Below are positions 1 through 25,017 of a DNA stretch of 64,000 nucleotides, one piece after another. The translations under genes and the position numbers were made by a program. This DNA is from Candidatus Omnitrophota bacterium (GTDB taxonomy: Bacteria > Omnitrophota > Gorgyraeia > Zapsychrales > Zapsychraceae). A model generated the notes under the pieces. It saw only the letters and a program-made list of their open reading frames with translations, had not been told where the DNA came from and ran no database searches. Position 1 is the first letter of the stretch. Each line of letters starts with the position of its first letter. The stretch spans positions 267 through 64,266 of the forward strand of contig DATDQB010000024.1 in the NCBI GenBank assembly GCA_035292445.1. The letters run 5' to 3'.

Positions 1-3000
1 TCATCCGCCGGCATCAACTGGGATGAGATCAATACCATGACAGAGGCCGGCATCAACTGGAGCGATATCGGTGTCATGACCGACCAAGGTATCAATTGGT
101 CGGATATCGGCGTCATGAGCGATTCAGATATCAATTGGACGAACATTGGCGACCTCTCAACAGCCGGCATCAATTGGGATGAGATCAACGCCATGACAGA
201 AGCGGGCATCAATTGGGATAACATCGGGGACCTTTCAACAGCCGGCATTAATTGGGATGATATCGAAGCATTGACCACAGCAGGCATTAATTGGACTGAC
301 ATTAACGTTTTGACGCAAGCCGGCATCAATTGGGATGATATCAATGCCATGACGGATGCGGGCATCAACTGGAGTGATATCGGGGTGATGAGCGACGAGG
401 GCATCAATTGGAGCGATATTGGCGTGATGAGCTCTTCCGATATTAACTGGACAAATATCAGTGACCTCTCCAGTACCGGGATCAACTGGAGCGATATCGG
501 GGTCATGAGCGATTCCGATATCAATTGGACCAATATCGGTGATCTTTCAACTGCCGGCATCAACTGGGATGAGATCAATACCATGACCGAGGCCGGCATC
601 AACTGGAGCGATATCGGCGTCATGACCGAGCAGGGCATCAACTGGAGCGATATCGGGGTGATGAGCGATTCAGATATCAATTGGTCGGATATCGCCGATA
701 TGTCTAGCGTTGGCATTAACTGGGAGGACATCAATGCCTTAACGGAAGCGGGTATTAATTGGGATAACATAGAAGAGCTCTCAACGGCCGGCGTCAACTG
801 GGACGGCATCAACGACATGACGGAAGCCGGTATTAATTGGGATGATATCAGCGTATTAAGCGAGGCCGGCATTAATTGGAATGACATCGATGCGATGAGC
901 GAAGTTGGCATTAATTGGACCAATATCGGCGATCTCTCAACGGCGGGCGTTAATTGGTCGGATATCGGCGTCATGAGCACCCGGGGCATCAACTGGGATG
1001 ATATTGGTGTATTAACTGAAACGGGCATCAATTGGGATAATATCGGCGAAATGTCCGATGCCGGCATTAATTGGAATGAGATCGGCGTCATGGCGGAGGC
1101 CGATATCAACTGGGACAACATTTCTGATCTTTCAACCGCCGGCATCAACTGGGATGAGATCAATGCCATGACGGAAGCCGGCATCAACTGGAGCGATATC
1201 GGCGTCATGACCGATCAGGGTATCAACTGGAGCGATATTGGGGTCATGAGCGATTCAGATATCAACTGGTCCAATATCGGTGATCTTTCAACCGCCGGCA
1301 TCAACTGGGATGAGATCAATGCCATGACGGAAGCCGGCATCAACTGGAGCGATATCGGCGTCATGACCGATCAGGGTATCAACTGGAGCGATATCGGGGT
1401 CATGAGCGATTCAGATATCAACTGGTCCAATATCGGTGATCTTTCAACCGCCGGCATCAATTGGGATGAGATCAATGCCATGACGGAAGCCGGCATCAAC
1501 TGGGATGACTTGGCGTTCATGTCAACACAAGGCATCAATTGGTCGGATATTGGCGTTATGTCTGACCAAGGCATCAATTGGAGTGATATAGGGGATCTCT
1601 CCTCGGCAGGTATTAATTGGGATGATATCCAGGAGCTCTCAACCACCGGCATCAACTGGAATGACCTGGATGTGATGACAGAAGCCGGCATTAACTGGTC
1701 GGATATCGGTGCTATGACGGAGGCCGGCATCAACTGGAGCGATATCGGGGTGATGACCGATCAGGGTATCAACTGGAGCGATATCGGGGTGATGAGCGAT
1801 TCTGACATCAACTGGATCAATATCGGTGATCTGTCATCCGCCGGCATCAATTGGGATGAGATCAATGCCATGACGGAAGCCGGCATCAACTGGAGCGATA
1901 TCGGCGTCATGACCGATCAGGGTATCAACTGGAGCGATATTGGGGTCATGAGCGGATCAGATATTAACTGGACCAATATCAGCGACTTATCTTCTGCCGG
2001 AATTAACTGGGGTGATATTACCGATTTAAGTGAAGCCGGCATTAATTGGGATAATATCGGCGATCTCTCATCCGCCGGCATCAATTGGGATGAGATCAAT
2101 GCCATGACAGAGGCCGGCATCAACTGGAGCGATATCGGCGTCATGACCGAGCAGGGCATCAACTGGAGCGATATCGGCGTCATGACCGAGCAGGGTATCA
2201 ACTGGAGCGATATCGGGGTCATGAGCGATTCCGACATCAACTGGTCTGACATTGGTGTCATGTCAACATCGGAGATTAACTGGACCAATATCGGCGATCT
2301 TTCTTCCGCCGGCATTAACTGGGATGAGATCGCTGTCATGGCAGAAACCGGCATCAACTGGGATGATCTGGATGTGATGTCAGATGCGGGCATCAACTGG
2401 AGCGATATCGGCGTCATGACCGAGCAAGGCATCAACTGGAGCGATATCGGCGTCATGACCGAGCAAGGCATCAACTGGTCGGATATCGGAGTGATGTCAA
2501 CATCAGATATCAATTGGACAAATATCGGCGACCTTTCAACCGCCGGCATCAACTGGGATGAGATCAATGCCATGACAGAAGCCGGCATCAATTGGAGCGA
2601 TATCGGGGTGATGACGGACCAGGGCATCAACTGGAGCGATATCGGGGTGATGAGCGGATCAGATATTAACTGGATTAATATCAGCGACTTATCTTCTGCC
2701 GGAATTAACTGGGATGATATTCAAGAACTTTCAACTACCGGCATCAACTGGGATGAGATCAATGCCATGACAGAAGCCGGCATCAATTGGAGCGATATCG
2801 GGGTGATGACGGACCAGGGCATCAACTGGAGCGATATTGGGGTGATGTCCGATCAAGGCATCAACTGGTCTGACATAGGGGTGATGTCAACATCAGATAT
2901 CAATTGGATCAATATCAGCGACTTATCTTCTGCCGGAATTAACTGGGATGATATTCAAGAACTTTCAACTACCGGAATTAATTGGTCGGATATTGGGGTG

Positions 3001-6000
3001 ATGACAGATGCCGGCATCAATTGGTCCGATATCGGGGTCATGAGCGATTCCGATATTAATTGGACTGATCTCAGTGAAATGACTTCCCAAGGCATTAATT
3101 GGAGCGATATAGGCGTCATGAGCGATCAAGGGATCAATTGGAGCGACATTGAAGAAATGAGCACTCAAGGGATCAATTGGTCTGACATTGGGGCAATGTC
3201 CACAGCAGATATCAATTGGACGAACATCGGCGATCTTTCTTCAGCCGGCATCAATTGGGATGAGATCGGCGTTATGGCAGAGGCCGGCGTCAATTGGAAT
3301 GACCTAACGGCTTTGACCGAAGCCGGCATCAACTGGTCGGATATCGGCGTGATGAGCGATCAAGGCATCAACTGGTCTGACATCGGCGTCATGAGCGATC
3401 AAGGCATCAATTGGTCTGACATTGGGGCAATGTCCACAGCAGATATCAATTGGACGAACATCGGCGATCTTTCTTCAGCCGGCATCAACTGGGATGAGAT
3501 CGGCGTTATGGCAGAGGCCGGCGTCAATTGGAATGACCTAACGGCTTTGACCGAAGCCGGCATCAACTGGTCGGATATCGGTGTTATGAGTGAGTCCGAC
3601 ATCAATTGGTCTAATATCGGCGATCTCTCATCAGCCGGTATTAACTGGAATGATATTACGGCCATGACAGAGGCAGGTATCAACTGGTCGGATATCGGCG
3701 TCATGTCCGATCAAGGCATTAATTGGTCTGACATCGGCGTCATGAGCGATCAAGGCATCAATTGGTCTGACATTAACGTCATGTCCGATCAAGGCATCAA
3801 CTGGTCGGACATTGGGGTCATGAGCGATTCGGATATCAATTGGAGCAGTATTGGTGATCTTTCTACAGCAGGCATTAATTGGGATGAAATTACTGCCATG
3901 ACAGAGGCAGGTATCAACTGGTCGGATATCGGTGTCATGTCAGAGCAAGGCATCAACTGGTCGGATATCGGCGTCATGTCCGATCAAGGCATTAATTGGT
4001 CTGACATCGGCGTCATGAGTGATTCCGACATCAACTGGTCTGACATTGGGGCAATGTCCACAGCAGATATCAATTGGACGAACATCGGCGATCTTTCTTC
4101 AGCCGACATCAACTGGGATGAGATCAATGCCATGACCGAAGCCGGCATCAATTGGAGCGACATAGGCGTCATGACCGAGCAAGGCATCAACTGGAGCGAT
4201 ATAGGCGTCATGAGCGATTCCGACATCAACTGGTCGGATATCGGCGTCATGAGCGATTCCGACATCAACTGGTCTGACATTGGGGCAATGTCCACAGCAG
4301 ATATCAATTGGTCTAATATCGGCGACCTCTCATCAGCCGGCATCAACTGGGATGAGATCAACACCATGACCGAAGCCGGCATCAATTGGAGCGACATAGG
4401 CGTCATGACCGAGCAAGGCATCAACTGGAGCGATATAGGCGTCATGAGCGATTCCGACATCAACTGGTCGGATATCGGTGTCATGTCCGAGCAAGGCATC
4501 AACTGGAGCGATATAGGCGTCATGAGCGATTCCGACATCAACTGGTCGGATATCGGTGTCATGTCCGATCAAGGCATCAACTGGTCTGACATTGACATTA
4601 TGTCTGACCAAGGGATCAACTGGTCTGACATTGACATTATGTCCGACCAAGGGATTAATTGGTCGGATATCGGTGTCATGTCCGATCAAGGCATCAACTG
4701 GTCAGACATTGACATCATGTCCGATCAAGGCATCAACTGGTCGGATATCGGGGTGATGAGTTCTCAAGGCGTCAATTGGACTAGTATCGGTGATCTCTCA
4801 ACGGCCGGTATCAATTGGAACGATATTGACATCATGTCCGATCAAGGCATCAACTGGTCGGATATCGGGGTGATGAGCGGCCAGGGCATCAACTGGTCGG
4901 ATATTGGGGTGATGAGCTCGCAAGGCATCAATTGGAGCGATATCGATATTATGAGCGATGCCGGCATCAACTGGTCAGACATTGACATCATGTCCGATCA
5001 AGGCATCAACTGGTCGGATATCGGGGTGATGAGTTCTCAAGGCGTCAATTGGACTAGTATCGGGGACCTTTCAACGGCCGGTATCAATTGGAACGATATT
5101 GACATCATGTCCGAGCAAGGCATCAACTGGTCGGATATCGGGGTGATGAGCGGCCAGGGCATCAACTGGTCGGATATTGGGGTCATGAGCGATTCCGACA
5201 TTAACTGGACCGATCTAAGTGAAATGACTTCCCAAGGCATCAACTGGTCGGATATGGCGGAGATGACCACCGCTGACATCAACTGGTCGGATATCGGGGT
5301 GATGAGCGATCAAGGCATCAACTGGAGCGACATAGGCGTGATGAGTGAAACCGGCATCAACTGGAGCGATATCGGGGAAATGACCACCTCCGGCATTAAT
5401 TGGGATAATATTCAAGACATGACGACGACCGGCATCAACTGGGATGATATCGGCGCGATGGCTTCATCCGGCATCAACTGGACTGATATGGCGGAGATGA
5501 CCACCGCTGACATCAACTGGAGCGATATCGGTGTCATGTCCGATCAAGGCATCAATTGGAGTGATATCGGCATAATGAGTGAAGCAGGCATCAACTGGAG
5601 TGATATTGGGGAAATGAGCGCCTCCGGCATCAACTGGGACAATATCGGAGATATGTCAACGGCGGGCATCAACTGGGAAGATATAACTGTAATGACAACC
5701 CGTGGAATAAATTGGGATGAGATCGGCGTCCTGTCTGATGCGGGTGTTAATTGGGATAATATTTCGGATCTTTCAACAGCGGGGGTGAACTGGGACGGCA
5801 TCAACGACATGACAGAAGCGAACATTAATTGGGACAATGTTGCGGAAATGTCAACAACAGGCATCAATTGGAGCGATATCGGCGTGATGAGCGAATCCGG
5901 CATCAACTGGGGCGATATCAATATCATGAGCGATGCCGGCATTAATTGGGCTGATATAGGCGAGCTCAGTGCCTCAGGCATCAACTGGTCGGATATCGGG

Positions 6001-9000
6001 GTCATGAGTGAAACGAACATTAATTGGGATGATATTGGAGCGCTAACCACTTCTGGCATCAACTGGGGCGATATCAATATCATGAGCGATGCCGGCATTA
6101 ATTGGGCCGATATAGGCGAGCTCAGTGCCTCAGGCATCAACTGGTCGGATATCGAGGTCATAACCGAACAGGGCATCAACTGGTCTGATATCGGGGTCAT
6201 GAGCGATCAGGGCATCAACTGGAGCGATATCGGCGAGCTTTCAGCGGCCGGCATCAATTGGTCGGAGATCGGGGTTATGGCAGAGACTGGTATCAATTGG
6301 GATGACCTTCAGGCATTAAGTACATCAGGCATCAACTGGGATAACATCGGGGATCTCTCTACGGCTGGTATCAATTGGAGTGATATCAATATCATGAGCG
6401 ATGCTGGCATTAACTGGTCGGATATCGGCGTTATGTCCGATCAAGGCATTAACTGGTCAGATATCGGGGTCATGAGCGATCAGGGCATTAATTGGAGTGA
6501 TATCAATGTCATGAGTGAAGCCGGCATTAATTGGGCTGATATCGGAGAACTCAGTTCCTCGGGCATCAACTGGTCTGAAATCGGTGTTATGACCGAAGCC
6601 GGGGTCAATTGGGATGATATCAGCGCCTTAACCACCTCAGGCATCAATTGGGATGATCTGACGTTCATGACCGAAGCCGGTGTCAACTGGGATAACATCG
6701 GGGATCTCTCAACGGCTGGCGTTAACTGGGATAATATCACGGTGATGACGGAGGCCGGCATCAACTGGTCGGACATTGGCGTCATGACCGAGCAAGGCAT
6801 CAACTGGAGCGATATCGGCGAGCTTTCTTCCGCTGGCATCAATTGGAGCGATATCGGGGTCATGAGCGAAACGAATATCAATTGGGATGACCTTCAGGCA
6901 TTGAGTACGACCGGCATCAACTGGGATAATATCGGGGATCTCTCAACGGCCGGCGTTAACTGGGATAATATCACCGTGATGACGGAGGCCGGCATTAACT
7001 GGTCGGATATCGGGGTCATGTCTGACCAAGGCATCAACTGGAGCGATATCGGCGAGCTTTCAGCGGCCGGCATCAATTGGAGCGATATCGGGGTCATGAG
7101 CGAGACCAACATCAATTGGGATGATCTGACTTCCTTGACGGAAGCCGGCATCAATTGGTCGGATATCGGGGTCATGTCTGACCAAGGCATCAACTGGAGC
7201 GATATCGGCGAGCTTTCAGCGGCGGGTATTAACTGGTCTGATCTAAGGGTCATGGGTGATGCGAATATTAATTGGGACAATATCGGAGACCTATCAGCGG
7301 CCGGCATCAATTGGTCGGATATCGGGGTGATGAGCGAGACCAACATCAATTGGGATGACCTCCAGGCATTGAGTACGACCGGCATCAATTGGGATAATAT
7401 CGGGGACTTATCAAGTGCCGGCATCAATTGGGATAATATTGGGGATCTCTCAACGGCCGGTATTAACTGGGGCGATATTACAGTCATGAGTGAACAGGGC
7501 ATTAATTGGGCCGATATAGGAGAACTTAGTTCTTCAGGCATCAACTGGAGCGATATCGGGGTGATGACCGAGCAAGGCATCAACTGGAGCGATTTGACGG
7601 CCTTGACCGAGGCCGGCGTCAATTGGGATAATATCGGGGATCTTTCATCGGTCGGCATTAATTGGGATAATATTAGTGCTATGGCGACGGCCGGTATCAA
7701 TTGGGAAGACATTAGCGCCATGAGCGCCTCGGGTGTCAATTGGGACAGCATTGGCGAACTCTCGGTTGCTGATGTCAACTGGGATAACTTGAGCGAGCTT
7801 TCGGCAGCCGGCGTTAATTGGGATAATCTTAATGTCATGACCGAAGCGGGCATCAACTGGAGCGATATCGGCGCATTAAGTGCTGCGGGCGTGAATTGGG
7901 ATAGTATCGGCAATCTTTCGGCAGCAGGCATCAACTGGGATGATATCGGCGCCATGTCCGATCAAGGTATCAATTGGGCAGACATAGGTGTCCTGACCGA
8001 AGCCGGTATCAATTGGGATGATGTGGGAAGGATGAGCACGGTCGGCATCAATTGGGATGATATCCGGTCTTTAACGCAAGCCGGGATTGATTGGAGCAAT
8101 ATTCAGGAAATGACGGTAGCCGGTATCAATTGGGATGATATCAGCGATATGACGGCTGCGGGCATCAACTGGTCGGATATCGGGGTCATGGCGGCTCAGA
8201 ATATCAATTGGGAGGGCATCGATGTTTTAAGCGATGCCGGCATCAATTGGGAGGATATCGGGAACCTTTCCGAAGCCGGCATCAATTGGGAAGATATCGG
8301 CACCATGGCCGCCTCCGGCATCAACTGGGATGACCTTGAGGCCATGACCACCACCGGCATCAACTGGGATGATGTGGCCTTCATGACGGGTGCCGGCATC
8401 AATTGGAGCGATATGGGTGTTTCCACGACACAAGGCGTCAATTGGAGCGATCTTGCCTTTATGTCCAATGCCGGCGTCAATTGGGACGGCATTGCGTACC
8501 TGGCCGATAACGCCTCGACGCTCATTAGTAACGTCAACACGATCCTTACGACGATACAAAGCCTTGAGAGCATTATCGGAACATCCGCTGACTCGCTGGT
8601 GGATGGGACGCTATTCGGGACGATCAATGAGATCTTGTCTGTTGTCAACGGGCTGAGCCCGGCAGATATCACGGCGATCTTAGCGGCCGTGACGAATATC
8701 GAGGACTTGTTAGGAGTCCCGGGTGATGCGGCCAGCGAAGACACGGTATTCGGCGATCTTTTGCAGACCCAGGAATTCGTCGATACGCTGGAAACGCTTT
8801 TAGGCACGGCTACCGATGCTCCGGAGCTGGAGTCTGTTTTTGGCAAGTTGAACTTTATCTCGGATGCCGCCAACGATGCGGATAACAGTGCCGGAGCCGT
8901 CCTATCCATCGTCACTGAGCTCAGGGATGACGTAGGCGTCAATGGCCAGACACCCAAGCTGTATGACCTTATCCAAAATTTAGCTGTCGAATTGGAAGAT

Positions 9001-9267: not shown

Positions 9268-9269
9268 GG

Positions 9270-10577
9270 ATGAGACGAAACGATCGTATTTTTAAATATG
9301 TGCCATGGGTTGTTGTTTTGCTTCTCATCGGCGTCTTGACGCCTTACGCGTGGGCCGATCTGTATCTGAACATATTGGCCGTTAACGGCTCCGATGTGGC
9401 CAGAGAGAAAGAGATCAGCCAAGTTCTGCCAAAGGAATTAACGGCCGAAGATATTTTGGATACGGATGGATTAAGGCTTGAATATGATGTGGAAACCGGG
9501 GCTTATATGGTCAGCGGCACGGTGGCCTTGGCCCCCAAAGAATCAAAGACGTATAAGATCTTGATCCGCGATCTTTGGAAATTTGACGAAGAGCAAGTTG
9601 GCAAAGTCCGTGAGCAGGTTGAGGTCAGTCTTAAACAGCTTGAGGGCACGGAATATTATGATGTAGGGAAGATCAAGAAGCAGGTGTTATTGCAGAGGCT
9701 TGATTTTCTTCTGCAGGAGCAGGCCAGGTTTGCAGATAACATTGAAAAGCGTATGGATACATTTCGCGTCTATGAGCAGGAAATGGCTACCCTTCGGGAA
9801 CACGCCGGGTCGATCAAATACTGGCGGACAAAGCTCCCGGATACGGAGGATGCGGATGTTTTTTACTTTATTATTGAGCTGGAGAATCCGACGGACGAGC
9901 CGGTCATGAATAACCAGAAATATTATCTTCCTAAAGAGGTAACACCAGAGCATTTCGTTGATTTGCAGGACTTTGATATCCGTTATGATTCGATCAAGCA
10001 GAAATCCTATCTGATAAAAGAAGAGGAATTAAAGCCCAAGGAGGTCAAGCGCTATAATATCGCTCTCATTGATGTATGGAATATTAAGCAGAAAAATTTA
10101 GATAACTTGAAGGAGCGGGCCAAGTATGCGTATCAGTACATTGAGCCGACGAAATATGTAGAGAACGCAAAATATCTGATGGGGAATATCAAGAAGAATT
10201 TTGAGACGATCGAGGGGATTCAGGCCCGGGAAAAGAGCATCAATGAGCATATCAGCGTTTATCGCAGGAATGTCGAACGATTCGCCTCCACCCGCAAAGA
10301 CGTGGAGGCCTTGGAAGAGCTGTTGGAGGTCATCCGCGAAGAACTGAAACGAAGCAAGGTCGAGAATGTCTTGAAGAAGATCCGCGGATTAAGGACGCTT
10401 GTCGACATTGCCAAAAGCATCATGAAGAAACCGGTCGATCAAGTGGCGTGGAATATCATCATGGCCATTCTTATTTTCGTGGGTGTCGTGACCATCATTA
10501 ATTTTGCCATTTGGGGGAGCCGTTCCAAGAATATTGATGAAAAAGAAGAAACGAAAGAAGAGAAAAAAGGATCCTAA
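9270..10577 (+). CDS. Hypothetical bitopic protein: N-terminal signal peptide or anchor (cleavage-like AWA), long charged coiled-coil-like middle, C-terminal TM helix and a KE-rich tail
   Basis: ATG 3 nt after the giant gene stop. Hydrophobic N-terminus VVVLLLIGVLTPYAWA and C-terminal TM IIMAILIFVGVVTIINFAIWG. No recognisable enzymatic motif. Confidence 0.6.
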   Translation: MRRNDRIFKYVPWVVVLLLIGVLTPYAWADLYLNILAVNGSDVAREKEISQVLPKELTAEDILDTDGLRLEYDVETGAYMVSGTVALAPKESKTYKILIRDLWKFDEEQVGKVREQVEVSLKQLEGTEYYDVGKIKKQVLLQRLDFLLQEQARFADNIEKRMDTFRVYEQEMATLREHAGSIKYWRTKLPDTEDADVFYFIIELENPTDEPVMNNQKYYLPKEVTPEHFVDLQDFDIRYDSIKQKSYLIKEEELKPKEVKRYNIALIDVWNIKQKNLDNLKERAKYAYQYIEPTKYVENAKYLMGNIKKNFETIEGIQAREKSINEHISVYRRNVERFASTRKDVEALEELLEVIREELKRSKVENVLKKIRGLRTLVDIAKSIMKKPVDQVAWNIIMAILIFVGVVTIINFAIWGSRSKNIDEKEETKEEKKGS

Positions 10578-10580
10578 CAT

Positions 10581-12659: not shown

Positions 12660-12893
12660 ATGGAACCGTTTAATTTAGTAAGCGAGGCCGTCATCTTTAT
12701 CGCCGTGTTTTCGATCGTTGTCATGCTACCGTGCTATTTCGTGGTCATGATCGGGCGAGATATGATCGATCAGATCGGGCAGTTCCCGACGATGGCGGCA
12801 AGGATCCAATTGAAGGCGCTGTTTAAACTGGTGGCGGTCGAACTGGTGTCGTTTTTTCTTTTGATCGCCTTTTACCGCGTATTTGCCCATTAA
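12660..12893 (+). CDS. Small two-helix membrane protein, possibly a second divergent c-like proteolipid (Glu in helix 2, AVELVSFF)
   Basis: 77 aa, RBS aaaggga, two hydrophobic helices, located between atpE and atpF. Assignment is by position and topology only. Confidence 0.4.
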   Translation: MEPFNLVSEAVIFIAVFSIVVMLPCYFVVMIGRDMIDQIGQFPTMAARIQLKALFKLVAVELVSFFLLIAFYRVFAH

Positions 12894-13671: not shown

Positions 13672-16055
<2,384 letters not shown>

Positions 16056-16057: not shown

Positions 16058-18280
16058 ATGAAACAGCTTAATAAAATAATAGAAGAAGCCCTCATCAAGA
16101 ACAATGTCCTCGCCAAAGGCAGTTTAAAAACCTACCAAGAGCAGGCCCAAAAAAAAGGCGAATCCTTAAGGGATTTTCTCATCGACCAGAACATCGTGAC
16201 GGAGCAGCAGATCCTGGTGAGCCTTTGCCAGCAGCTTAATTTGGAGCGCGTGAGCTTTCAAACCCTTGCCATTGATTCAGCCGCCATCGAAAAAGTCCCG
16301 GTTAAGTTCGTTTGGTATTATAAGATCATGCCGATCCGCCTGGAAGGCGACACGTTGACCGTTGCCAGCGCAATTCCCTTAGACGTTAAAACGCAGGATG
16401 AACTGCGGGTGCATTTGGGATCGGGAATAAAGGTCGTGCTCGCCTCCGAACGGGAATTGACAGAGGCCTTAAAAAAATATTACGGGTTTGCATCCGATAC
16501 CATCGACCGGATCATGACGAAAGAAGGCACGTCTACGGCTGGAATGATGTCATCAATGGAGGCGATCGAAGATATCGAGCAAAAATCCGAAGACCCGACG
16601 GTCTCAAACCTGGTCAATGAGATCATCATGGAAGCGTACCGAAAGAGGGCGACCGACATCCATATTGAGCCGTACCGCGATAAGGTGCGCTTTCGTTATC
16701 GTATTGACGGCGTTCTGGTGGACGCGTATTTGCCGGATAAAGTCAAACATTTCTTGCCAGCGATCCTTTCCCGTATCAAGATCATGGCGAATTTAAGCAT
16801 CACCGAAAGGCGTCTGCCGCAGGACGGCAGCGCGGTCGTCAAGACCAGGGAACAGCCGCTTGACTTGCGCATTTCAACGATGCCCACGCCCCGCGGGGAG
16901 AGTTTGGTCGTGCGCATCCTGCCTTCCAAGGTCATGCTCTTTAGCCTGGAAAAACTCGGGTTTAACGAAGAAGGCGTCAAAAGTTTCAGGGAGCTTATTA
17001 AGAGACCGCACGGCATTATTTTCCTGACCGGACCGACGGGAAGCGGGAAAACGACGACTCTTTACGCCTGCCTGAATGAGATCAGCACGCCGGGTAAGAA
17101 GATCATCACCATCGAAGACCCGGTGGAGTATGAGATGGAAGGCATTACCCAGGTCCAGGTGAACCCGAAAGTACAATTCAGCTTTGCGACCGGGCTGCGC
17201 AGCATTCTTAGGCATGATCCGGATATCATCATGGTCGGGGAGGTCCGTGACCCGGAAACCGCGGAGATCGCGATCAAGACGGCCTTGACCGGGCATCTTG
17301 TTTTCTCGACGCTACACACCAATGACGCCTCTAGCGGCGTCACCCGCCTGATCGATATGGGCATTGAACCGTATCTGGTCGCCTCAAGCGTTGAGGCCTT
17401 TGTCGCCCAGCGGCTGGTGCGGGTGATCTGCCCGCGCTGTAAAGAAGAAGACGCTCATCCTTTGGCGGGCATTGTCGATGAGATCAGGCATTCGCTTAAA
17501 TTCGATGCCAACAGGCCGGTAAGGATATATAAGGGGAAAGGCTGCGAATATTGCAATGGCACCGGCTATTACGGCCGTGTGGCCATTTATGAAAATTTGA
17601 TGCTCAATGACCGCATCCGCGCGGCGATTCTGGAAAAACCGCGTTCCGATTATATAAAAAAGATCGCTATCGAAGAAGGCATGCAGACCTTGCGTCAAAA
17701 CGGCTGGCAAGCGGTCCTGCAGGGCATCACCACTTATGAAGAAGTGATGAATGTCACGACGAAAGATGACGCTTTGGGTGCGGGCAATCTGACGGATAAG
17801 TTAAAAAAGGATGATGCGGAACAAACGCAGGCGTCGCTGCGGCAGGTTAAAATAAAGAAACAGGGAAACTGGTCGGAAAAAAATGATTATGACGGGCGGA
17901 TGTACGAGCGCAGCTATGACCCCATTTCCGTCCGTTACCGGCTGGTGAAAAAAGATGAGCAAAACCACGACACGCTGGTGACCGACGGCATCGAACACTC
18001 GACCGTGACCGAAGATATCAGCGCCGGAGGCTTGCGCTTCACCTGCAAGCAGCTGATCGGCGTGGGCTCGATTTTGGAATTGAACATTCAGGCCGGGGAG
18101 GCAGGGAAAAGCATCGATTGTTTTTCCAAAGTTTGCCGCGTGGAGCAGGATAATTTCGATAATGCCTACACGATCGTGGCGTATTACCTTGATATTTCAA
18201 GCGCGGACCGTGTATTGATCGACCGGCTCGTCAAGAAAAAAGCCAATAAGGGCATCGAAGTCAAAGAAAACGTGTCTTAG
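16058..18280 (+). CDS. Type II/IV secretion ATPase (GspE/PilB family) with an N-terminal GspE_N domain and a C-terminal PilZ (c-di-GMP-binding) domain
   Basis: Walker A GPTGSGKTTT, tetracysteine CPRC...CEYC, and a C-terminal ~190-aa extension carrying RMYER (RxxxR, nt 17897-17911) and DISAGG (DxSxGG, nt 18014-18031). Confidence 0.85.
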   Translation: MKQLNKIIEEALIKNNVLAKGSLKTYQEQAQKKGESLRDFLIDQNIVTEQQILVSLCQQLNLERVSFQTLAIDSAAIEKVPVKFVWYYKIMPIRLEGDTLTVASAIPLDVKTQDELRVHLGSGIKVVLASERELTEALKKYYGFASDTIDRIMTKEGTSTAGMMSSMEAIEDIEQKSEDPTVSNLVNEIIMEAYRKRATDIHIEPYRDKVRFRYRIDGVLVDAYLPDKVKHFLPAILSRIKIMANLSITERRLPQDGSAVVKTREQPLDLRISTMPTPRGESLVVRILPSKVMLFSLEKLGFNEEGVKSFRELIKRPHGIIFLTGPTGSGKTTTLYACLNEISTPGKKIITIEDPVEYEMEGITQVQVNPKVQFSFATGLRSILRHDPDIIMVGEVRDPETAEIAIKTALTGHLVFSTLHTNDASSGVTRLIDMGIEPYLVASSVEAFVAQRLVRVICPRCKEEDAHPLAGIVDEIRHSLKFDANRPVRIYKGKGCEYCNGTGYYGRVAIYENLMLNDRIRAAILEKPRSDYIKKIAIEEGMQTLRQNGWQAVLQGITTYEEVMNVTTKDDALGAGNLTDKLKKDDAEQTQASLRQVKIKKQGNWSEKNDYDGRMYERSYDPISVRYRLVKKDEQNHDTLVTDGIEHSTVTEDISAGGLRFTCKQLIGVGSILELNIQAGEAGKSIDCFSKVCRVEQDNFDNAYTIVAYYLDISSADRVLIDRLVKKKANKGIEVKENVS

Positions 18281-18327
18281 GGTAAGCTCGGTTTCCCCTC
18301 ATTTTTCTTTCCTTACCAATCATTGAC

Positions 18328-19539
18328 ATGGCCACCTATATTTACAGAGCCAAAAAAAGTACCGCCGAAACTGTCACGGGCACGGTCAAGGCCCAAAGCC
18401 AGGATGAGGCCATCGACCTCATTAACCAGCTGGGGCTGTTGCCGATTTCTGTGAAGCCGCAGGAGGAGAGGGAGGAGAGCGGCGCCATTTCCCGGACGAG
18501 GACCGTCTCTTCCAAAGAACGCTACATATTCACCAAACAATTGGCCAATCTGTTAAAATCCGGCGTGACGATCCTGCGGGCCTTGGCGATCATCGGTGAA
18601 CAGACCCATAATCGTTTTCTAAGAAGGGTCATCGAGCATATCGGTCATCAGATCAAAAACGGCAAGTCGCTTTCGCAGGCGCTTTCGGTGTATCCCAATT
18701 TATTTTCCTCTTTGTATGTGACTATGGTCGCGGCCGGCGAGGAAAGCGGCAATTTGCAGTCGATGCTGGTATCGGTCGCCGAGTACCAGTTCCGCGAAGA
18801 GGAGATCCGCTCCAAGGTGCGCATGGCCGTCGCTTATCCTATTTTGATGCTCATTGTCGGGGGCGCGACGATCTATTTTATGCTGTCTTTTGTGCTGCCA
18901 AAGATGTCGGGGTTATTTGCCAACATGGGAGAGCAGCTTCCTTTGCCGACACAGATCTTATTGGGCGTCAGCAAGGCGATCAACCAATGGGGCTTATTCG
19001 GCATCCTGGCGGCGGTGGTCGGCGTATTTGTCGTTTTGCAATGGGCCAAATCGGCGTATGGGAAACGCGTCTTAAGCCAATTTATTTTAGGGATACCTCT
19101 CATCGGCGACATCTTGCTCAAGACGGAGCTGGCGCGGTTTTGCCGGACGCTGGTCCTTTTGAACCAGGGGGGGATCTCATTGGTGCATTCCCTTCATATC
19201 GCGATCCCTATTTTAGAGAATGAAGTGGTCAAGAACCATTTGATCCGATGCAAAGAGGCATTGCTGGCCGGCGGCTCTTTCGGGGAAACCCTTAAAAAAT
19301 CCAGCCAGATCCCCACGATGATGGGTTATATGATCTCGGTGGGGGAAGAGTCCGGGAGCCTTGATGAGGTCCTTATTGAGCTGGCCGTTTCTTTTGAGGG
19401 GGAAACGAACGAACGCATCAAGGTCATGACGACCCTATTGGAGCCGGTCTTGATATTGGCCATCGGCGTTATCGTCGGTTTCATTGTTTTTGCCATGTTG
19501 CTGCCTATCTTTCAGTTGGATATCATGTCTCAAGGATGA
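18328..19539 (+). CDS. Type II/IV secretion platform protein (GspF/PilC family)
   Basis: 403 aa with two T2SF-type repeats and three TM segments. Typical position after the ATPase. Confidence 0.85.
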   Translation: MATYIYRAKKSTAETVTGTVKAQSQDEAIDLINQLGLLPISVKPQEEREESGAISRTRTVSSKERYIFTKQLANLLKSGVTILRALAIIGEQTHNRFLRRVIEHIGHQIKNGKSLSQALSVYPNLFSSLYVTMVAAGEESGNLQSMLVSVAEYQFREEEIRSKVRMAVAYPILMLIVGGATIYFMLSFVLPKMSGLFANMGEQLPLPTQILLGVSKAINQWGLFGILAAVVGVFVVLQWAKSAYGKRVLSQFILGIPLIGDILLKTELARFCRTLVLLNQGGISLVHSLHIAIPILENEVVKNHLIRCKEALLAGGSFGETLKKSSQIPTMMGYMISVGEESGSLDEVLIELAVSFEGETNERIKVMTTLLEPVLILAIGVIVGFIVFAMLLPIFQLDIMSQG

Positions 19540-20351
19540 TGTTGATCAATTCCCTCATGGTCGCACGGCTCTTTCTCATCGGCGCGTTGGTATTTTTCCC
19601 GGATGTTTCCTGGGCCGTTTCCTGGCAGGAAGAAAAGGGAAAGCACTTTATCATTCGTACGGCCGGGGAAGATGCCGAGGTCTGGGCCAAAGAAGTTTTG
19701 CGTCACGCGGAGGATTATTACAGGACCATTGCCCAAGAGATCGATTATCCGCGTTACGATGATTTCTGGACATGGGACGAGCGCGTTTCTATCACGGTGT
19801 ACCCGGATAAGCAAACGTTCCTTGAGGCAACAGGCCAACCCGAGTGGTCGATGGGAGGGGCGATCCACCGCCCGCGGCATGAACATAAGCGCACCATTGT
19901 TACTTATAAGCAGGAAGAAAATTTTTTAGACGGTTTGTTGCCGCATGAGATCAGTCATTTGATGCTCATTGATTATATTGGCGAGAAATACCCTATTCCG
20001 ATTTGGTTGAACGAGGGGGTTGCCCAGCTGCAGGAGAAAGACAGGCGCCCTAAGGCGGATATATTGATGCGCCAGTTGGTAACGGCCAATCAGGCGATTC
20101 CCTTTGATGAACTTTTTGAGACGGATATCCGCCAGGAAACGGAAACACTGCGCGTGGCCGTTTTTTATTCGCAAAGCGTTTCGATCGTTGATTTTCTGAT
20201 CACAGATTATGGCAGCAAGAAATTCGGCCTGCTGTTGCGGCAGCTGCGCGATGGGAAGGATTTTGAGGAGGCTTTGGGCACAACGTATGCGACCACGGTT
20301 CCTTCTATAGAGGAGCTTGAAAAAAAATGGGTAAGTTATATGAAAAAATAA
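19536..20351 (+). CDS. Secreted HExxH zinc-metallopeptidase-like protein (peptidase MA-like / DUF1570-like)
   Basis: N-terminal signal peptide, HEISH at nt 19944-19958 followed by NEG (a possible third ligand Glu). 4-nt overlap with the upstream gene. Confidence 0.5.
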   Translation: MMLINSLMVARLFLIGALVFFPDVSWAVSWQEEKGKHFIIRTAGEDAEVWAKEVLRHAEDYYRTIAQEIDYPRYDDFWTWDERVSITVYPDKQTFLEATGQPEWSMGGAIHRPRHEHKRTIVTYKQEENFLDGLLPHEISHLMLIDYIGEKYPIPIWLNEGVAQLQEKDRRPKADILMRQLVTANQAIPFDELFETDIRQETETLRVAVFYSQSVSIVDFLITDYGSKKFGLLLRQLRDGKDFEEALGTTYATTVPSIEELEKKWVSYMKK

Positions 20352-20396
20352 AATTTCGTTGTATGATGGATTTATCTTCAGGCAAGGAGGATTAGT

Positions 20397-20822
20397 ATGT
20401 TTCTTGGGTCGATCATAAAGAAAAAAGGCTTTACGTTGGTTGAAATCATGCTTGTTGTCATCATCATCGCGGCACTTTCAGCCATGGTGGTTCCGCGGCT
20501 GGTGGGGCGTTCCGAACAGGCCAAGGTATCCGTGGCCCGTTCCGACATTGAAGCCCATTTGTCAACGGCCCTTAAGCTGTATGAATTGGATAACGGCAGT
20601 TTCCCGACGACCGCTCAAGGCTTGCAGGCCTTGAAGGTCCAGCCTACGACCGCCCCCGCGCCCAAGAACTGGAACGGCCCGTATGTCGAAAAAGACCCCC
20701 TCGACCCCTGGGGCAATTCTTATGTTTACGCATCTCCCGGGAAGAACCGGCCCGATTACGACCTTTATTCCACGGGCAAGAATCCCGATTCCCCCGATGA
20801 TGACATAAAAAACTGGGAATAA
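20397..20822 (+). CDS. gspG: Major pseudopilin, GspG family (prepilin N-terminus GFTLVEIM)
   Basis: KKGFTLVEIMLVVIIIAALSAMVVPRL and the GspG signature NWNGPYV...DPWGN.Y.Y. Confidence 0.85.
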   Translation: MFLGSIIKKKGFTLVEIMLVVIIIAALSAMVVPRLVGRSEQAKVSVARSDIEAHLSTALKLYELDNGSFPTTAQGLQALKVQPTTAPAPKNWNGPYVEKDPLDPWGNSYVYASPGKNRPDYDLYSTGKNPDSPDDDIKNWE

Positions 20823-20831
20823 CCTCTTCCC

Positions 20832-21281
20832 ATGATCCGCCCAAACCAACACGATCGAAACGCACCCGCGAAGGGTTTCTTGGCTGCCAACGCGGGATTC
20901 ACTTTTATTGAGATCATGGTGACGCTGGCCGTTTTATCCGGCAGTATCGTCATGATCTACCGGGCCCTTTTTTCTTCGCTGGATCATATGAGCCGCTTGA
21001 ACAGCCGGTTATATGCGGACATTTTGTTGGAAGACCGTATCGCCACGATCGAACGCACCCTGCGGGCCTACAAAGCCCTTCCCTTTGAACTGAATCCGCC
21101 GCAGGCTGTTGACGTGGGTGCCAAAGAGATCCAGTTTACGCCGCAGATGAAAATCAGCGAAGTCAGCGGTTTTATGGATGTTTTTCAAATTGACCTGGCC
21201 TTGCAGTGGCAGGAAGGCCAGCGCCAAATCCAGTTGTCCCGCTCGGCGTATATCTCAGATTTTATTTATGAAAGCCCTTAA
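20832..21281 (+). CDS. Minor pseudopilin (GspH/I-like), prepilin N-terminus NAGFTFIEIMVTLAV
   Basis: Class III signal-peptide motif G-F-T-x-I-E and a hydrophobic helix. Confidence 0.6.
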   Translation: MIRPNQHDRNAPAKGFLAANAGFTFIEIMVTLAVLSGSIVMIYRALFSSLDHMSRLNSRLYADILLEDRIATIERTLRAYKALPFELNPPQAVDVGAKEIQFTPQMKISEVSGFMDVFQIDLALQWQEGQRQIQLSRSAYISDFIYESP

Positions 21282-21879
21282 GAGAGCCTTGATATCTCAA
21301 TCGGCCGGCATGACGTTCATGGAAATCATGCTGGTCGTTTCCCTGATCGGGATGGTGAGCATCGCTTTGTACCAAGCCTTTGCCAACGGCATGAAGGTCT
21401 GGGAAAAAAGCCGTGAGATGGTCGTTGAGGAGGACATCATCATCTTTTTTGATAAATTTGCGCAGGATTTAAGGAATACGTTTGTTTTCTCCACTTTGCC
21501 TTTTGAAGGGGATAGCCAGCGTTTTTCGTTCCCGTCGCTTGTTCGGGCGGCGGATATGAAAAAGTTTTCTGCCGTTAAACAATTTAAAGAACAAATGGGG
21601 CGCGTGGAATATTATTACGACCCTCAAGCGGATAGTTTGAACAGAAAAGTGGCCAACTACAGCCAGGCGCTGAACCGGAGTTTTGAGGAGCCGCAAATGC
21701 TCGTAGCGCCCATCGAGCGGATCCAGTTTCGTTATTATTATCTTACCGATGACGGTGAGCTCTTTAGCGAGCAGGTGCTGGAAGTGATACCCTCGGGCGT
21801 TGAGGTGGTGGTGATTTTCTCCGATCAAAAAGGGACAAGGCAGGTACAACGGTATTTTGCCATTCCGCTTAAGATCTAA
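21268..21879 (+). CDS. Minor pseudopilin (GspJ-like), prepilin N-terminus AGMTFMEIMLVV
   Basis: The track ORF starts at 21178 but overlaps the previous gene. ATG 21268 gives MKALKRALISQSAGMTFMEIM, a typical prepilin leader. Confidence 0.55.
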   Translation: MKALKRALISQSAGMTFMEIMLVVSLIGMVSIALYQAFANGMKVWEKSREMVVEEDIIIFFDKFAQDLRNTFVFSTLPFEGDSQRFSFPSLVRAADMKKFSAVKQFKEQMGRVEYYYDPQADSLNRKVANYSQALNRSFEEPQMLVAPIERIQFRYYYLTDDGELFSEQVLEVIPSGVEVVVIFSDQKGTRQVQRYFAIPLKI

Positions 21880-21881
21880 AA

Positions 21882-22919
21882 ATGTGCATGAGCATCGTTC
21901 ATAGAAAATGCAGGGGTTCGGTTTTGATCTTCGCGCTTTGGATCGTTATGCTGCTGACGGTTTTTGCGACCGCCATAGGCTTACGGGTGCGCCAGCGGAT
22001 GACGGTCCTATCGAGGATCGAAGACCGAAGCCGCCTGCACTATATTACCGAGGCGGGTGCCAAAAAAACCATCGCCGCCATACGTTTTGACAAGGAGCGC
22101 CATCCGCAACAGATGGACGCTGAGTCCAAGGCCTACCGGCACCATAACCAGGATGTGTTTGAAAAAATAACTCTGCCGGAAGGGAGCGCACGGGTCAGTT
22201 ACGAGCTCCATCCTTTGGAAAAAAAGGAAAAAGACCTGCGCTTTGGGGTTGTGGATGAGGAAAGCAAGATCAATGTGAATACATCGGACCGCGCCAGCCT
22301 TACGCGCCTATTCGATCTGGTCACGCCGTTAGATGAGGAAGAAGCCAAGGGGCTGGTCGAAGCCATCATCAGTTGGCGTGAGATCGGCGAAACCCAACTG
22401 GTCGGGTTCGGCAGTGATGAGTATTATACGAACCTTCCTTATCCTTACCTGAATAAACATGCGCCTTTTGAAATCCTTGACGAACTTTTGCTGGTGAGGG
22501 GGATGAATGAGGAAATTTACGAGCGTATCAAGCCATTTATCACCATCTACGGTGATGGGTTGGTCAACATCAACACGGCCTCTGAAGAGGTCCTCTTCGC
22601 GTTAGGGCTGGAGGATCCGGTCATAGAGAAATTCCTTGCCGCCAGGGGCGGCTTAGACGGGGAGGAAGCGACGATGGATGACCATGTTTTCTTGGCCGCT
22701 TATGATGTCGCCAGCGAAGTGCAGAGCTTGGTTTCTTTGGATAAGGAAGAGGTCATTCAGCTCAGTTTTCTTAACGGTGCCGGAAAGATCAAGACAACCA
22801 GCGATTATTACCTGATCCAAAGCTTCGGCCAGCTGGATGAGGGGAAAGAGAAGCTTCGTATTGACTGTATCTACAACGCCAGGGACAATATTATTGAGTA
22901 TTGGAATGAAAATAATTAA
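21882..22919 (+). CDS. GspK-like minor pseudopilin
   Basis: N-terminal RGSVLIFALWIVMLLTVFA and a GspK-type helix-hairpin-helix region LVNINTASEEVLFALGL. Confidence 0.55.
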   Translation: MCMSIVHRKCRGSVLIFALWIVMLLTVFATAIGLRVRQRMTVLSRIEDRSRLHYITEAGAKKTIAAIRFDKERHPQQMDAESKAYRHHNQDVFEKITLPEGSARVSYELHPLEKKEKDLRFGVVDEESKINVNTSDRASLTRLFDLVTPLDEEEAKGLVEAIISWREIGETQLVGFGSDEYYTNLPYPYLNKHAPFEILDELLLVRGMNEEIYERIKPFITIYGDGLVNINTASEEVLFALGLEDPVIEKFLAARGGLDGEEATMDDHVFLAAYDVASEVQSLVSLDKEEVIQLSFLNGAGKIKTTSDYYLIQSFGQLDEGKEKLRIDCIYNARDNIIEYWNENN

Positions 22920-22988
22920 TATTTCTATTAATAACCTCTAGAATTCATATATAATAAAATAAAAATAATAGTATAAGTAAATACCATT

Positions 22989-24464
22989 ATGAATATCAAA
23001 GGCAGTCATTTTATCATCGCTTCTTTCAATGAGGAGACGCTGAAAGTCGCCGAGATCAAAGGCTTAGGCACCTCCACCCGCATCACCAACGTGACTGAAC
23101 AGAACGTCAAAGGGGTCACGGCAGAGGAATTGCCGGGGCTTATCCAAAAGGCGTTTTTGCATTTTAAGGCCAAGCAGGCCAGCCTGCTCTACTCTATCGC
23201 GCCCACTATGCTCACGACGAAAAATATCGAGATCCCCTCGGTGAATCCCGAAGAGATCAAGTCGATCGTCAATCTCCAGGCTAGCCGCCACACGCCCTTT
23301 ACCAGGGAAGAGATCCAGATCGGTTATATCAATATCGGCGTTTATAAGAAAAATTATTCCAAGGTCCTTTTGATCATCGCCAATAAGAATGTCCTGAAGG
23401 ACCAACTCTTGACTTTCCAAAAGGCCGGGTTGAATTTTAAGAATGTTTTGTTCCCCGCGGAGGCCATCGCCGCCTTCTATGCCAGGATCCTCAAGCAAAA
23501 AGCGAAGGCAGCACCGGAGGCCGTCATTGACATTGGCAGAAACTCGACGGAATTTATCGTGATCCATAAGGGCCAGGCGATCACCACCCGCAGCATTCCC
23601 GTGGGCAAATCCCAGCTCAACAAAGAAGGCATGGGCGCCCAGACACGGCTCATCGGGGAGCTGAACCAAACCATCGAATCCTATCAGACCGAAGACATTG
23701 AGGTGCTGCCCGCCCGCTATGTTTTGACCAGCGATGATACGCAAACACAGAGTTTAAAATCCATGCTTAAGGAAAAACTGAACTGGAATGTCGACATCGT
23801 CCCCTACATCGATCACGTGAAAGTCGCTAAGCCGCTTCTTAAGCGCATGGCGACCGAATTCAGCGAAACATCCTTTCTTGATCTGGCCGCCTCCGCCGCC
23901 ATGATCAAAGAGACCAAGGTCAGCTTGGTCCCGGAAGAACTCCAGTTTCAAAAATCGATCGAAGAACAAGGGAAGGAAGTCTTTAAAGCCGCGTTATTGA
24001 GCATCCTGCTTTTGATCCTGGTGGGAGCGGCCTTGGGGCTTAAAATTTATTACAAGAGCAGCTTCCTGCAAAAATTGAAAGATGACAATGCCGTCAACCG
24101 TCAGGCGGTCGAGAAACTGGAGACATTGTCCGAGAAGACAAAGATCGTCAAAAACTTTTTAGAAACACGGATGGACAGCTTGGACACCATCTATGAGCTT
24201 TACAGCCGTATTCCCGATGAGGTTTATTTGACCAGTATCGACATGGATGAATCCGGCAATGTGAGTATTCAGGGCGTCTCCGATGTGGCTTCCATCGTTT
24301 TTAATTTAGGGACATCGCTCAAGGAGTCGGCGTTCTTTAAAAGCGTCGATATTAAATCAACGACATCAAAGAAAGACCGCGGCAAGGATGTTTCGGCTTT
24401 TGAGATCACGTTGACGATCCACTCGAGTCCGTCGGCCAATGAGCCGGCAGAACCAAAGGAGTAA
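22989..24464 (+). CDS. Pilus assembly protein, PilM-like actin-fold domain fused to a TM segment and a PilN-like periplasmic domain (GspL-like architecture)
   Basis: An AT-rich putative promoter precedes it. A TM helix AALLSILLLILVGAALGL lies at about aa 335. Similarity is pattern-level only. Confidence 0.5.
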   Translation: MNIKGSHFIIASFNEETLKVAEIKGLGTSTRITNVTEQNVKGVTAEELPGLIQKAFLHFKAKQASLLYSIAPTMLTTKNIEIPSVNPEEIKSIVNLQASRHTPFTREEIQIGYINIGVYKKNYSKVLLIIANKNVLKDQLLTFQKAGLNFKNVLFPAEAIAAFYARILKQKAKAAPEAVIDIGRNSTEFIVIHKGQAITTRSIPVGKSQLNKEGMGAQTRLIGELNQTIESYQTEDIEVLPARYVLTSDDTQTQSLKSMLKEKLNWNVDIVPYIDHVKVAKPLLKRMATEFSETSFLDLAASAAMIKETKVSLVPEELQFQKSIEEQGKEVFKAALLSILLLILVGAALGLKIYYKSSFLQKLKDDNAVNRQAVEKLETLSEKTKIVKNFLETRMDSLDTIYELYSRIPDEVYLTSIDMDESGNVSIQGVSDVASIVFNLGTSLKESAFFKSVDIKSTTSKKDRGKDVSAFEITLTIHSSPSANEPAEPKE

Positions 24465-25017
24465 TGCGTTGATCCAAAAGTTTGTATCAGGTTTATCGGA
24501 AAAAGAACGGAAAGTCTTCTACATCACCGTCTTGTTTGTTTCCTTGGCTTTGTTCGATCGGTTGTTTATCGGGCCTGTTCTCTCGCACCTGGAGCGGCTG
24601 GATCTGGAGATCGAGAAGCAGAAAGTGGATATTCTTCGGGACCGCCGGTTCCTTGCCTATCAGGACCGTATAAAAAAAGAAAGCGAGATTTTCAGCAAAT
24701 ATTTTTCCGCAGCCGTTCCGGATGACGACGTCGTTAACGCGCAGTTCTTGAGTTTGATCGAAAAATTGGCCACCCTCGGCAAGGTCAGCCTTATCAAAAG
24801 CAACCCTTCCCACACCAACAAACAGGAATTGTTCAACGAATATTTCGCCAGCGTTGACTGCAACGGAAATCTGGAAGACGTCATCTCCTTCATGCATACG
24901 ATCAACACGACCGAAGAACTTCTGAAAGTCACCAAGTTTAACATGTCGCCCCGGCGCGGTGGAAGTGAGAACGAAGTGAAGGTGTCCATGTCCGTCGTCA
25001 AATTGATCTCTCATTAG
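24439..25017 (+). CDS. PilO/GspM-like bitopic protein
   Basis: Short cytoplasmic N-terminus, one TM, a coiled coil and a C-terminal domain. Overlaps the previous gene by 26 nt. Confidence 0.4.
   Translation: MSRQNQRSNALIQKFVSGLSEKERKVFYITVLFVSLALFDRLFIGPVLSHLERLDLEIEKQKVDILRDRRFLAYQDRIKKESEIFSKYFSAAVPDDDVVNAQFLSLIEKLATLGKVSLIKSNPSHTNKQELFNEYFASVDCNGNLEDVISFMHTINTTEELLKVTKFNMSPRRGGSENEVKVSMSVVKLISH

Follow-up and report, generated by a model that had tools for sequence, protein, structure and literature searches.

Anatomy of an Omnitrophota F-type ATPase/pilus locus that encodes a giant secreted repeat protein, a putative host-attachment machine

Omnitrophota are uncultured, ultra-small bacteria that are apparently host-dependent or predatory, and among the few phylum-wide conserved loci that could explain their attachment to hosts is one that pairs an F-type ATPase with a pilus. 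Seymour et al. (2023; PMC10066038) described such 'symbiotic' F-type ATPase/type-4a-pilus loci in every Omnitrophota class, with the ATPase and the pilus within 10 kb on 57 of 66 contigs, and proposed that they serve attachment to host cells or movement over them; V. archaeovorus is one of many Omnitrophota with a non-respiratory F-type ATPase beside a type-4a pilus cluster. Atypical F1 relatives that serve surface proteins are also known from mycoplasmas: the Type 3 F1-like X0 ATPase systematically co-occurs with the MIB–MIP surface system and is required for it (Berlureau et al., 2026, PMC12994834; Beven et al., 2012, PMC3369863), and the Type 2 G1-ATPase of M. mobile is a gliding motor thought to drive giant surface proteins (PDB 9io5; PMC11864180). 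Here we analyse a 64-kb stretch of an Omnitrophota genome (positions 267 to 64,266 of contig DATDQB010000024.1; hereafter the window), of which nt 1–25907 form a block of 19 successive + strand genes encoding a giant repeat protein, a membrane protein (ORF2), an F-type ATPase set and type II secretion system (T2SS)- and pilus-like components.

We are nearly certain that this block is an instance of the published Omnitrophota 'symbiotic F-type ATPase/pilus' locus, with which it shares the host phylum and an F-type ATPase less than 10 kb from a type-4-filament cluster (here the beta and gspE genes lie 2 nt apart). A sequence-only reading of the first 25 kb had called the combination 'not a described module'. 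Because the ATPase–pilus association was already in print, the block is a known kind of locus to which anatomical detail is added; what survives of that claim is the fibre and ORF2, neither of which is mentioned in the literature searched. The text and supplements of Seymour et al., which report co-location and an alpha/beta phylogeny only, make no mention of the GINW-repeat fibre, ORF2, the missing a subunit, the second c subunit (c'), the truncated epsilon or the upstream secretin described below. The fibre, ORF2, the a-less set, c' and the secretin are likewise unmentioned in the preprint of West-Roberts et al. (10.1101/2023.11.21.568195) and in a complete-genome preprint (10.64898/2026.06.07.730766). 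The giant Sec-targeted repeat fibre, its ORF2 partner, the a-less locus, the two c paralogues and the truncated epsilon thus appear to be undescribed in the papers searched. The block also departs from the published account in two respects: there, the filament is a type-4a pilus and alpha grouped with Mycoplasma type 2/3, whereas here the pseudopilin is of the GspG type and alpha and beta score higher on canonical atpA/atpD models than on Mycoplasma models. Every inspected locus with close alpha/beta homologues was of this same kind, and beta homologues at 66–90% identity come overwhelmingly from sources named Omnitrophota or Omnitrophica.

Our interpretation, which draws on sequence comparison, is that the block probably encodes a cyclic di-GMP (c-di-GMP)-controlled host-attachment fibre machine with the ATPase as its ATP-driven motor. 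The fibre would cross into the periplasm via Sec and would then be passed through, or mounted on, a secretin/pseudopilus machine, and would tether the ultra-small cell to its host or prey. Assembly would be gated by c-di-GMP via the MshEN and PilZ domains of GspE, and the ATPase would hydrolyse ATP as a dedicated motor or energiser of the apparatus rather than serve the cell as its ATP synthase. We hold this motor role with much less certainty than the identification of the locus; it has a parallel in Mycoplasma, where atypical F1-like ATPases operate surface protein systems. A cell-attachment role, as the sequence-only reading had also suggested, is plausible and is the one proposed by Seymour et al. 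On this interpretation the locus would be a rare example outside Mycoplasma of a rotary ATPase of the F type that has apparently left bioenergetics for another task, still equipped with a c ring and stator stalk although the locus encodes no a subunit. A fibre and its dedicated membrane protein, bracketed by secretin and pseudopilus genes, turn the published co-location statistic into a concrete parts list.

Related loci (labelled L001–L015) share the arrangement. The colinear gene order, which runs from the fibre tail through to the TPR gene that closes the block, is found in L001–L007 and L009–L014, about ten lineages, with exceptions in L003/L004 and L014. By tblastn across L001–L007 and L009–L012, identities are 68–82% for beta, 34–50% for ORF2 and 32–47% for the fibre tail, which was detected in all related loci compared. 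The 5' side of the giant gene is visible in two loci, L014 (2979–9898) and L015 (1671–9854), both of which show the upstream order GT2, DUF2304, methyltransferase, GT2, AAA ATPase, GspC-like protein, secretin and TPR protein, the last directly preceding the giant gene; the counterpart region in our contig lies beyond the window's 5' edge. The upstream position of the secretin and GspC-like genes indicates that the fibre, ORF2 and the ATPase are embedded within a T2SS-like cluster, between its two halves. The L014 AAA ATPase has as its best NCBIfam match the XrtA/PEP-CTERM-associated ATPase. The L014 locus is without gspE, gspF and pilin genes, and the fibre, ORF2 and ATPase genes are still found between the secretin and PilZ/PilMN/PilO genes, with PilZ as a stand-alone protein beside PilMN and PilO.

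Within the block itself, an open reading frame listing with gap measurement showed that all genes from nt 1 to 25017 are on the + strand, as had been stated, and that the run reaches one gene further, to a TPR gene ending at 25907, where a − strand STT3-like gene converges on it with a 7-nt overlap. The gaps by gene order are 2, 3, 3, 3, 9, 21, 4, 11, 2, 47, −4, 45, 9, about −14, 2, 69, −26 and 29 nt, a range of −26 to 69 nt. The junctions between modules are tight (giant gene to ORF2, 2 nt; ORF2 to alpha, 3 nt; beta to gspE, 2 nt), and re-measurement exactly confirmed the earlier values for the gaps before gspF/pilC (47 nt) and pilM (69 nt). A consensus scan returned 31 terminator-like sites compared with 26.1 ± 5.6 in shuffles, and 29 promoter-like sites compared with 21.1 ± 4.7, no excess in either case. 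It placed no + strand terminator-like site in any intergenic gap of the block, in keeping with the earlier remark that no terminator-like hairpin is visible there. The best intergenic promoter-like site (TTAATA-16-TATAAT, 22928–22955) is inside the 69-nt gap before pilMN, and the GC content is even throughout. The block is a tightly packed, conserved array that is probably largely co-transcribed. In some relatives ORF2 and alpha are spaced 38–212 nt apart, which leaves room for internal promoters.

This wider spacing would also fit a chance adjacency of three unrelated operons in a compact genome, as would the fact that most of the 64-kb window is + strand, so that co-orientation alone is weak evidence. 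Against such an accident, however, the order is identical in about ten lineages although ORF2 and the fibre tail are only 32–50% identical. The ORF2 and tail families have few members, nearly all from Omnitrophota or unlabelled metagenomes, and occur in this context wherever inspected. Moreover, where the gspE, gspF and pilin genes have moved away in L014, the fibre, ORF2 and ATPase genes remain between the secretin and PilZ/PilMN. The shared arrangement is far beyond chance, and we regard coincidence as very improbable. The sequence-only reading had treated the three parts as one unit and had proposed looking for synteny in relatives; the same order in all related loci examined upholds that view.

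The first gene of the block (1..9267, +) has a frame that is open from nt 1, so that the window edge truncates the giant gene, leaving its 5' end outside and 3088 codons of its 3' part visible. These 3088 residues hold at least 218 tandem units, each of exactly 13 amino acids (aa), with the consensus G-I-N-W-S-D-I-G-V-M-S-[ED]-[AQ], in which N3 and W4 are invariant; the NW-to-NW spacing is 13 in 215 of 216 cases. Asp and Glu make up 16.7% of the repeat region and Lys and Arg 0.2%. A non-repeat C-terminal tail of about 250 aa, predicted to be helical, ends in KTYFESAG, and the tails of relatives end in K-T-[WY]-F-E. The GINW repeat and a homologous tail are found upstream of ORF2 in L001, L002, L003 and L013. 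A full-length homologue, P0123 (2809 aa), starts with a typical Sec signal peptide; next comes a head of about 1480 aa that includes Ig-like (Ig_Rha78A_N) domains, and then some 80 GINW units and the tail. This architecture indicates that the giant protein is an exported head–stalk–tail fibre, and its signal peptide supports the earlier description of a surface or filament protein. Where contigs allow, the called giant proteins are 3083, 5249, 6697 and 6919 aa long, and the length of the stalk differs several-fold between lineages. The repeat array has a mean DNA identity of 66–80%, and some 156-bp (four-unit) super-units are 96% identical in DNA (for example, window 1102–1503, and elsewhere in 1–8450), which points to recent expansion or gene conversion.

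An exhaustive HMMER search with the fibre tail returned 124 cluster representatives, compared with 2 fragments from a word-indexed search; the matches are mostly fragments because assemblies break within the repeats. Related contigs nearly always stop within the repeat array, and public assemblies systematically truncate the giant gene. The repeats also match PF25533 (Lysostaphin_N; 91.6 bits), a domain likewise built from 13-residue repeats, and on these grounds we rejected the match as an artefact.

Between the giant gene and alpha lies ORF2 (9270..10577, +), which is invariably in this position in the related loci compared and encodes a type I membrane protein of 435 aa with no Pfam or NCBIfam family. 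None of the 65 cluster representatives that a search returned has a functional name; those with source names are nearly all from Omnitrophota, and one weak partial match is labelled Verrucomicrobiae. An AlphaFold2 model (mean predicted local distance difference test (pLDDT) score of 80; alignment of 39 sequences) has a cleavable N-terminal signal and two periplasmic modules, each a beta-sandwich plus a helical bundle, followed by a C-terminal transmembrane (TM) helix and a short charged cytoplasmic tail. Foldseek found no match to this fold in the PDB. Conservation of the TM helix (0.57, compared with 0.29 for the signal) matches that of the folded domains, and it lies on one face (W394, I397, F403, V404, G405, T408, F412 and W415), which suggests a specific intramembrane partner. 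A scan of genome contigs for ORF2 with derived peptide patterns found 4 loci, the patterns being too strict. L008 was dropped from the comparison, as it has a distant ORF2-like domain in an unrelated context by Rho and TatC: the locus (8459–11104), from a metagenome-assembled genome (MAG) labelled Gammaproteobacteria, encodes an 881-aa SH3_3 protein, one region of which is 29% identical to ORF2, and its neighbours are Rho, an M23 peptidase and TatC.

The ATPase genes follow in the order alpha–epsilon–c–c'–b/delta–gamma–beta, which matches no canonical or N-type operon. Both alpha (10581..12143, +; Pfam ATP-synt_ab, _C and _N) and catalytic beta (14553..16055, +) score 506 bits on their equivalog models (TIGR00962 atpA, cutoff 484; TIGR01039 atpD, cutoff 463); both are divergent, scoring 425–478 and 437 bits, respectively, against solved F1 subunits. 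Alpha carries the motif GNKSTGKT, and the P-loop (GGAGCGKT) and GERVREG motif of beta are intact. With P-loop and catalytic Glu motifs intact and the atpA/atpD cutoffs passed, the F1 core is predicted to be catalytically competent. The N terminus of alpha, the canonical counterpart of which binds delta, is about 16–24 residues shorter than usual (PDB alignments begin at canonical residue 22–30), and beta has an N-terminal extension of about 40 aa.

The remaining subunits are more unusual. Epsilon (12147..12428, +; PF02823; 93 aa) consists of the beta-sandwich domain only, and in 9 of 9 lineages it is 90–108 aa long and without the inhibitory C-terminal helices. Subunit c (12432..12650, +; PF00137; 72 aa), 67–76% identical across lineages, has a Glu in its second TM helix (TM2) that is kept in 8 of 9 lineages, with Ser in L005. 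It is followed by c' (12660..12893, +; 77 aa), a second c-type hairpin that has no family match, shares the topology of c (about 25% identity in the alignment) and keeps the TM2 Glu in 9 of 9 lineages. Because c' is a two-helix c paralogue, we rejected two other identities for it, a degenerate a subunit and an AtpR/AtpQ-like protein. The L005 c gene (~5735–5950) reads FFVSAISI, with Ser for the membrane Glu, and the c' Glu is kept there; the change reflects either relaxed selection on ion binding or a MAG sequencing or assembly error. The b/delta-like peripheral stalk (12915..13667, +; 250 aa; Pfam OSCP and ATP-synt_B) has one N-terminal TM helix, and its best NCBIfam match is the N-ATPase b subunit, over the full length at 60 bits, which is below cutoff. 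Gamma (13672..14541, +) is divergent (PF00231, 80 bits; TIGR01146, 62 bits with a cutoff of 194), and gamma, b and c all fall well short of the cutoffs of their families. In L015 (1297–1674), some 8 kb upstream of the giant gene, there is a free-standing 125-aa protein with an OSCP (delta) Pfam match, which could be a separate delta-like piece of the ATPase; at the counterpart position in L014 there are only faint EF-hand matches.

No a subunit (PF00119) was matched in the window or in the called genes of 12 loci (L001–L004, L009–L015). Subunit a supplies the ion half-channels and an essential Arg, and ion translocation needs it. Because it is missing from the set, the label 'energy-converting ATPase' given by the sequence-only reading is not supported; the 'atp set' named there comprises alpha, epsilon, c, c', b/delta, gamma and beta, and subunit a is not among them. 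Measured against a canonical F1Fo, then, the set has the alpha/beta catalytic core and the c TM2 carboxylate, and it is without subunit a, a full-length epsilon and separate b and delta subunits.

The set could nevertheless be an ordinary ion-translocating F1Fo, acting as an ATP synthase or as an ATP-driven H+ or Na+ pump, with its a subunit encoded elsewhere and its linkage to secretion genes arising from a need for membrane potential or from an inherited operon fusion. Split atp operons do occur in other bacteria, and the scores of alpha and beta above the atpA/atpD equivalog cutoffs, the TM2 carboxylates of c and c' and the presence of a b-type stalk with a TM helix all fit this explanation. 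By contrast, the lack of an a subunit in the window and in the called genes of related loci does not, nor do the gene order, the truncated epsilon, the strong divergence of gamma, b and c, and the Glu-to-Ser change in c of one lineage. The set also lies between the halves of a T2SS, with junctions of 2–3 nt in the window. Furthermore, most relatives have V/A-type ATPases, the subunits of which are found in 70–99% of Gorgyraeia genomes outside Pluralincolimonadales (10.64898/2026.06.07.730766). We therefore consider an ordinary F1Fo unlikely, with about one chance in five left to it in our judgement. In the same preprint, F-type alpha and beta were detected in 125 of 176 complete Omnitrophota genomes and a gamma detectable by KEGG Orthology in 30 of 176; a gamma that escapes such detection in most genomes fits a divergent, accessory ATPase set.

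Comparison with other unusual F-type ATPases places the set apart from each of them. N-ATPases share the long b subunit in place of delta, and b/delta here aligns over the full b model, but the operon order differs and AtpQ, AtpR and subunit a are absent here; all N-ATPase models score below cutoff (alpha 453 < 750.5, beta 438 < 752, c 17 < 131, b 60 < 225 and gamma 17 < 282). Like the set here, the Mycoplasma Type 3 F1-like X0 ATPase is atypical for an F-type enzyme, has no recognisable a subunit and belongs to a bacterium that depends on a host and has a reduced genome. However, its clusters consist of 7 genes (four for alpha-, beta-, gamma- and epsilon-like proteins and three for unrelated ones) and are without c or b/delta, whereas the Omnitrophota set keeps c, c' and b/delta and its partner system differs from MIB–MIP. 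The Mycoplasma models MMOB1660/1670 and MSC_0619/0618 failed (386 < 600, 402 < 850, 281 < 520 and 381 < 570). The M. mobile G1-ATPase shares an F1-derived ATPase linked to giant surface proteins in a motility or attachment machine, but it forms a cytoplasmic dimeric chain without a c ring, and beta here scores only 321 bits against 9io5_A compared with the 437 bits against canonical F1 beta structures.

The position of ORF2 between fibre and ATPase allows a more mechanical proposal, made by analogy: the a-less c/c' ring might be a free rotor in or on which the ORF2 TM helix docks, such that F1 rotation would pass through the ORF2 periplasmic domain to the fibre tail, and a fibre threaded through the T2SS-like conduit would be twisted, reeled or tensioned. 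ORF2 has the topology of Ac45/Voa1 of V-ATPases (signal peptide, external domain, C-terminal TM helix and short tail). The conservation of its TM helix equals that of the folded domains and marks a single helical face, and in gene order ORF2 is always flanked by the fibre gene and alpha. Also in line with the proposal are the conserved fibre tail, with its terminal KT[WY]FE motif, and a locus that lacks subunit a. Its basis is nonetheless entirely gene order and topology. The ORF2 fold has no structural match in the PDB, no anchor is named for the b/delta stator, and such a rotor would not need the Glu that the c ring retains. We thus hold torque transmission to be a long shot, at roughly one chance in eight. 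If true, it would be a new kind of ATP-driven rotary apparatus, by which a cell twists, reels or tensions an attachment fibre on its host.

The favoured interpretation, a fibre machine assembled by a secretin/pseudopilus system, draws on the second half of the block. Beyond beta lies a GspE/PilB-type assembly ATPase (16058..18280, +; Pfam T2SSE) with an N-terminal MshEN domain and a C-terminal PilZ domain that carries RMYER and DISAGG motifs; it scores 577 bits on GspE (cutoff 630) and 566 bits on PilB, both just under cutoff. The next gene encodes a GspF/PilC platform protein (18328..19539, +; PF00482 twice; best match TIGR02120 GspF, 352 bits, cutoff 424), followed by a Peptidase_MA_2 metalloprotease-like protein with a HEISH motif (19536..20351, +; PF13485), which has the same position in most lineages and is absent in L003/L004. 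The major pseudopilin is of the GspG type (20397..20822, +; TIGR01710, 148.4 bits, cutoff 88.85; Pfam T2SSG and N_methyl). Three minor pseudopilins follow: GspI-like (20832..21281, +; N_methyl; gspI 25 bits, below cutoff), GspJ-like (21268..21879, +; weak T2SSJ match) and GspK-like (21882..22919, +; PF21687 T2SSK_1st; NF037980, 87 bits, cutoff 130). The likely start of the GspJ-like gene is an internal ATG at 21268, not 21178, with a prepilin-like MTFMEIMLVV after the internal Met. A PilM–PilN fusion (22989..24464, +; PilM_2 and PilN), which is the architectural counterpart of GspL, precedes a PilO/GspM-like protein (24439..25017, +; weak PilO and T2SSM_b; GspM 33 bits, cutoff 60) and the closing TPR protein (25047..25907, +; TPR families), which has an N-terminal signal sequence and is conserved in position in the 9 loci that reach that far. 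In relatives, the GspC-like protein (L014) scores 29 bits (GspC cutoff 150) and the secretin 246 bits on GspD (cutoff 351) and 248 bits on PilQ (cutoff 284). GspE, F, K, M, C and D are thus best or co-best matches with scores below their equivalog cutoffs.

PilM-, PilN- and PilO-like parts are present; for a type IVa pilus, however, the sole major pilin is GspG-type and the window holds no second, PilT-like ATPase. Features in common with T2SSs are a GspG over cutoff, proteins resembling GspE, F, I/J/K, M and C, a secretin and, encoded inside the cluster, a secreted protein that depends on Sec. It differs from them in the PilM–PilN fusion in place of GspL, the PilZ domain on GspE, the F-type ATPase inside the cluster and the presumed cargo, a fibre that ranges in length from about 2800 aa to over 6900 aa. 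Giant secreted proteins encoded beside T2SS-like and PilZ genes are also known in Omnitrophota from West-Roberts et al. (10.1101/2023.11.21.568195), but those genes (≥25 kb, Archaeovorin type) encode other domains and lie downstream of T2SS-like or Tad-like loci that include rcpC, and ATP synthase genes go unmentioned there.

Control by c-di-GMP is supported by the c-di-GMP-binding MshEN and PilZ domains on GspE and by a nearby c-di-GMP-I riboswitch (RF01051; window 31671–31730, +; 41.5 bits, gathering score 35). The riboswitch, followed by a terminator-like hairpin and T-run at ~31841–31868, is directly upstream of a pilin-like operon (31870–34358) with 3 pilin-like genes of 139 aa, 175 aa (with a prepilin N_methyl motif) and 506 aa, which suggests that another pilin set under c-di-GMP control lies 6 kb from the block.

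Several observations weigh against the proposed attachment machine and its motor. The 64-kb window contains no a subunit, secretin, PilT or prepilin peptidase, and of these the missing secretin and prepilin peptidase count against the machine. An AlphaFold2 model of 18 repeats plus the tail, made without an alignment, was unusable (pLDDT 44). The missing a subunit could be encoded elsewhere in the genome. Both alpha and beta match canonical ATP synthase models best, and the membrane Glu is retained in c' and c, two features that a working ion-translocating rotor would display; the retained Glu is the chief reason to think that ion binding may still be important.

The − strand gene that converges on the block (25901..28393; PF02516) encodes an STT3-like GT-C membrane glycosyltransferase that is possibly associated with it, as the gene converges likewise in L003, L004 and L012. 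The protein has WWPPG where the canonical motif is WWDYG, and because this catalytic motif is replaced, a role in N-glycosylation of the fibre is uncertain. An N-x-S/T sequon (NWS or NWT) occurs in 125 of 217 fibre repeat units.

Just downstream of the block, a 238-aa protein (window 29862–30578) has a C-terminal PEP-CTERM sorting motif. Outside the block, the window holds mostly ordinary metabolism genes. It also contains a tRNA-Lys(CTT) gene (window 37250–37322, −), and two genes of the 23S rRNA intervening-sequence (bAvd-like) family (window 37459–37824 and 56820–57179) lie amid the metabolic genes.

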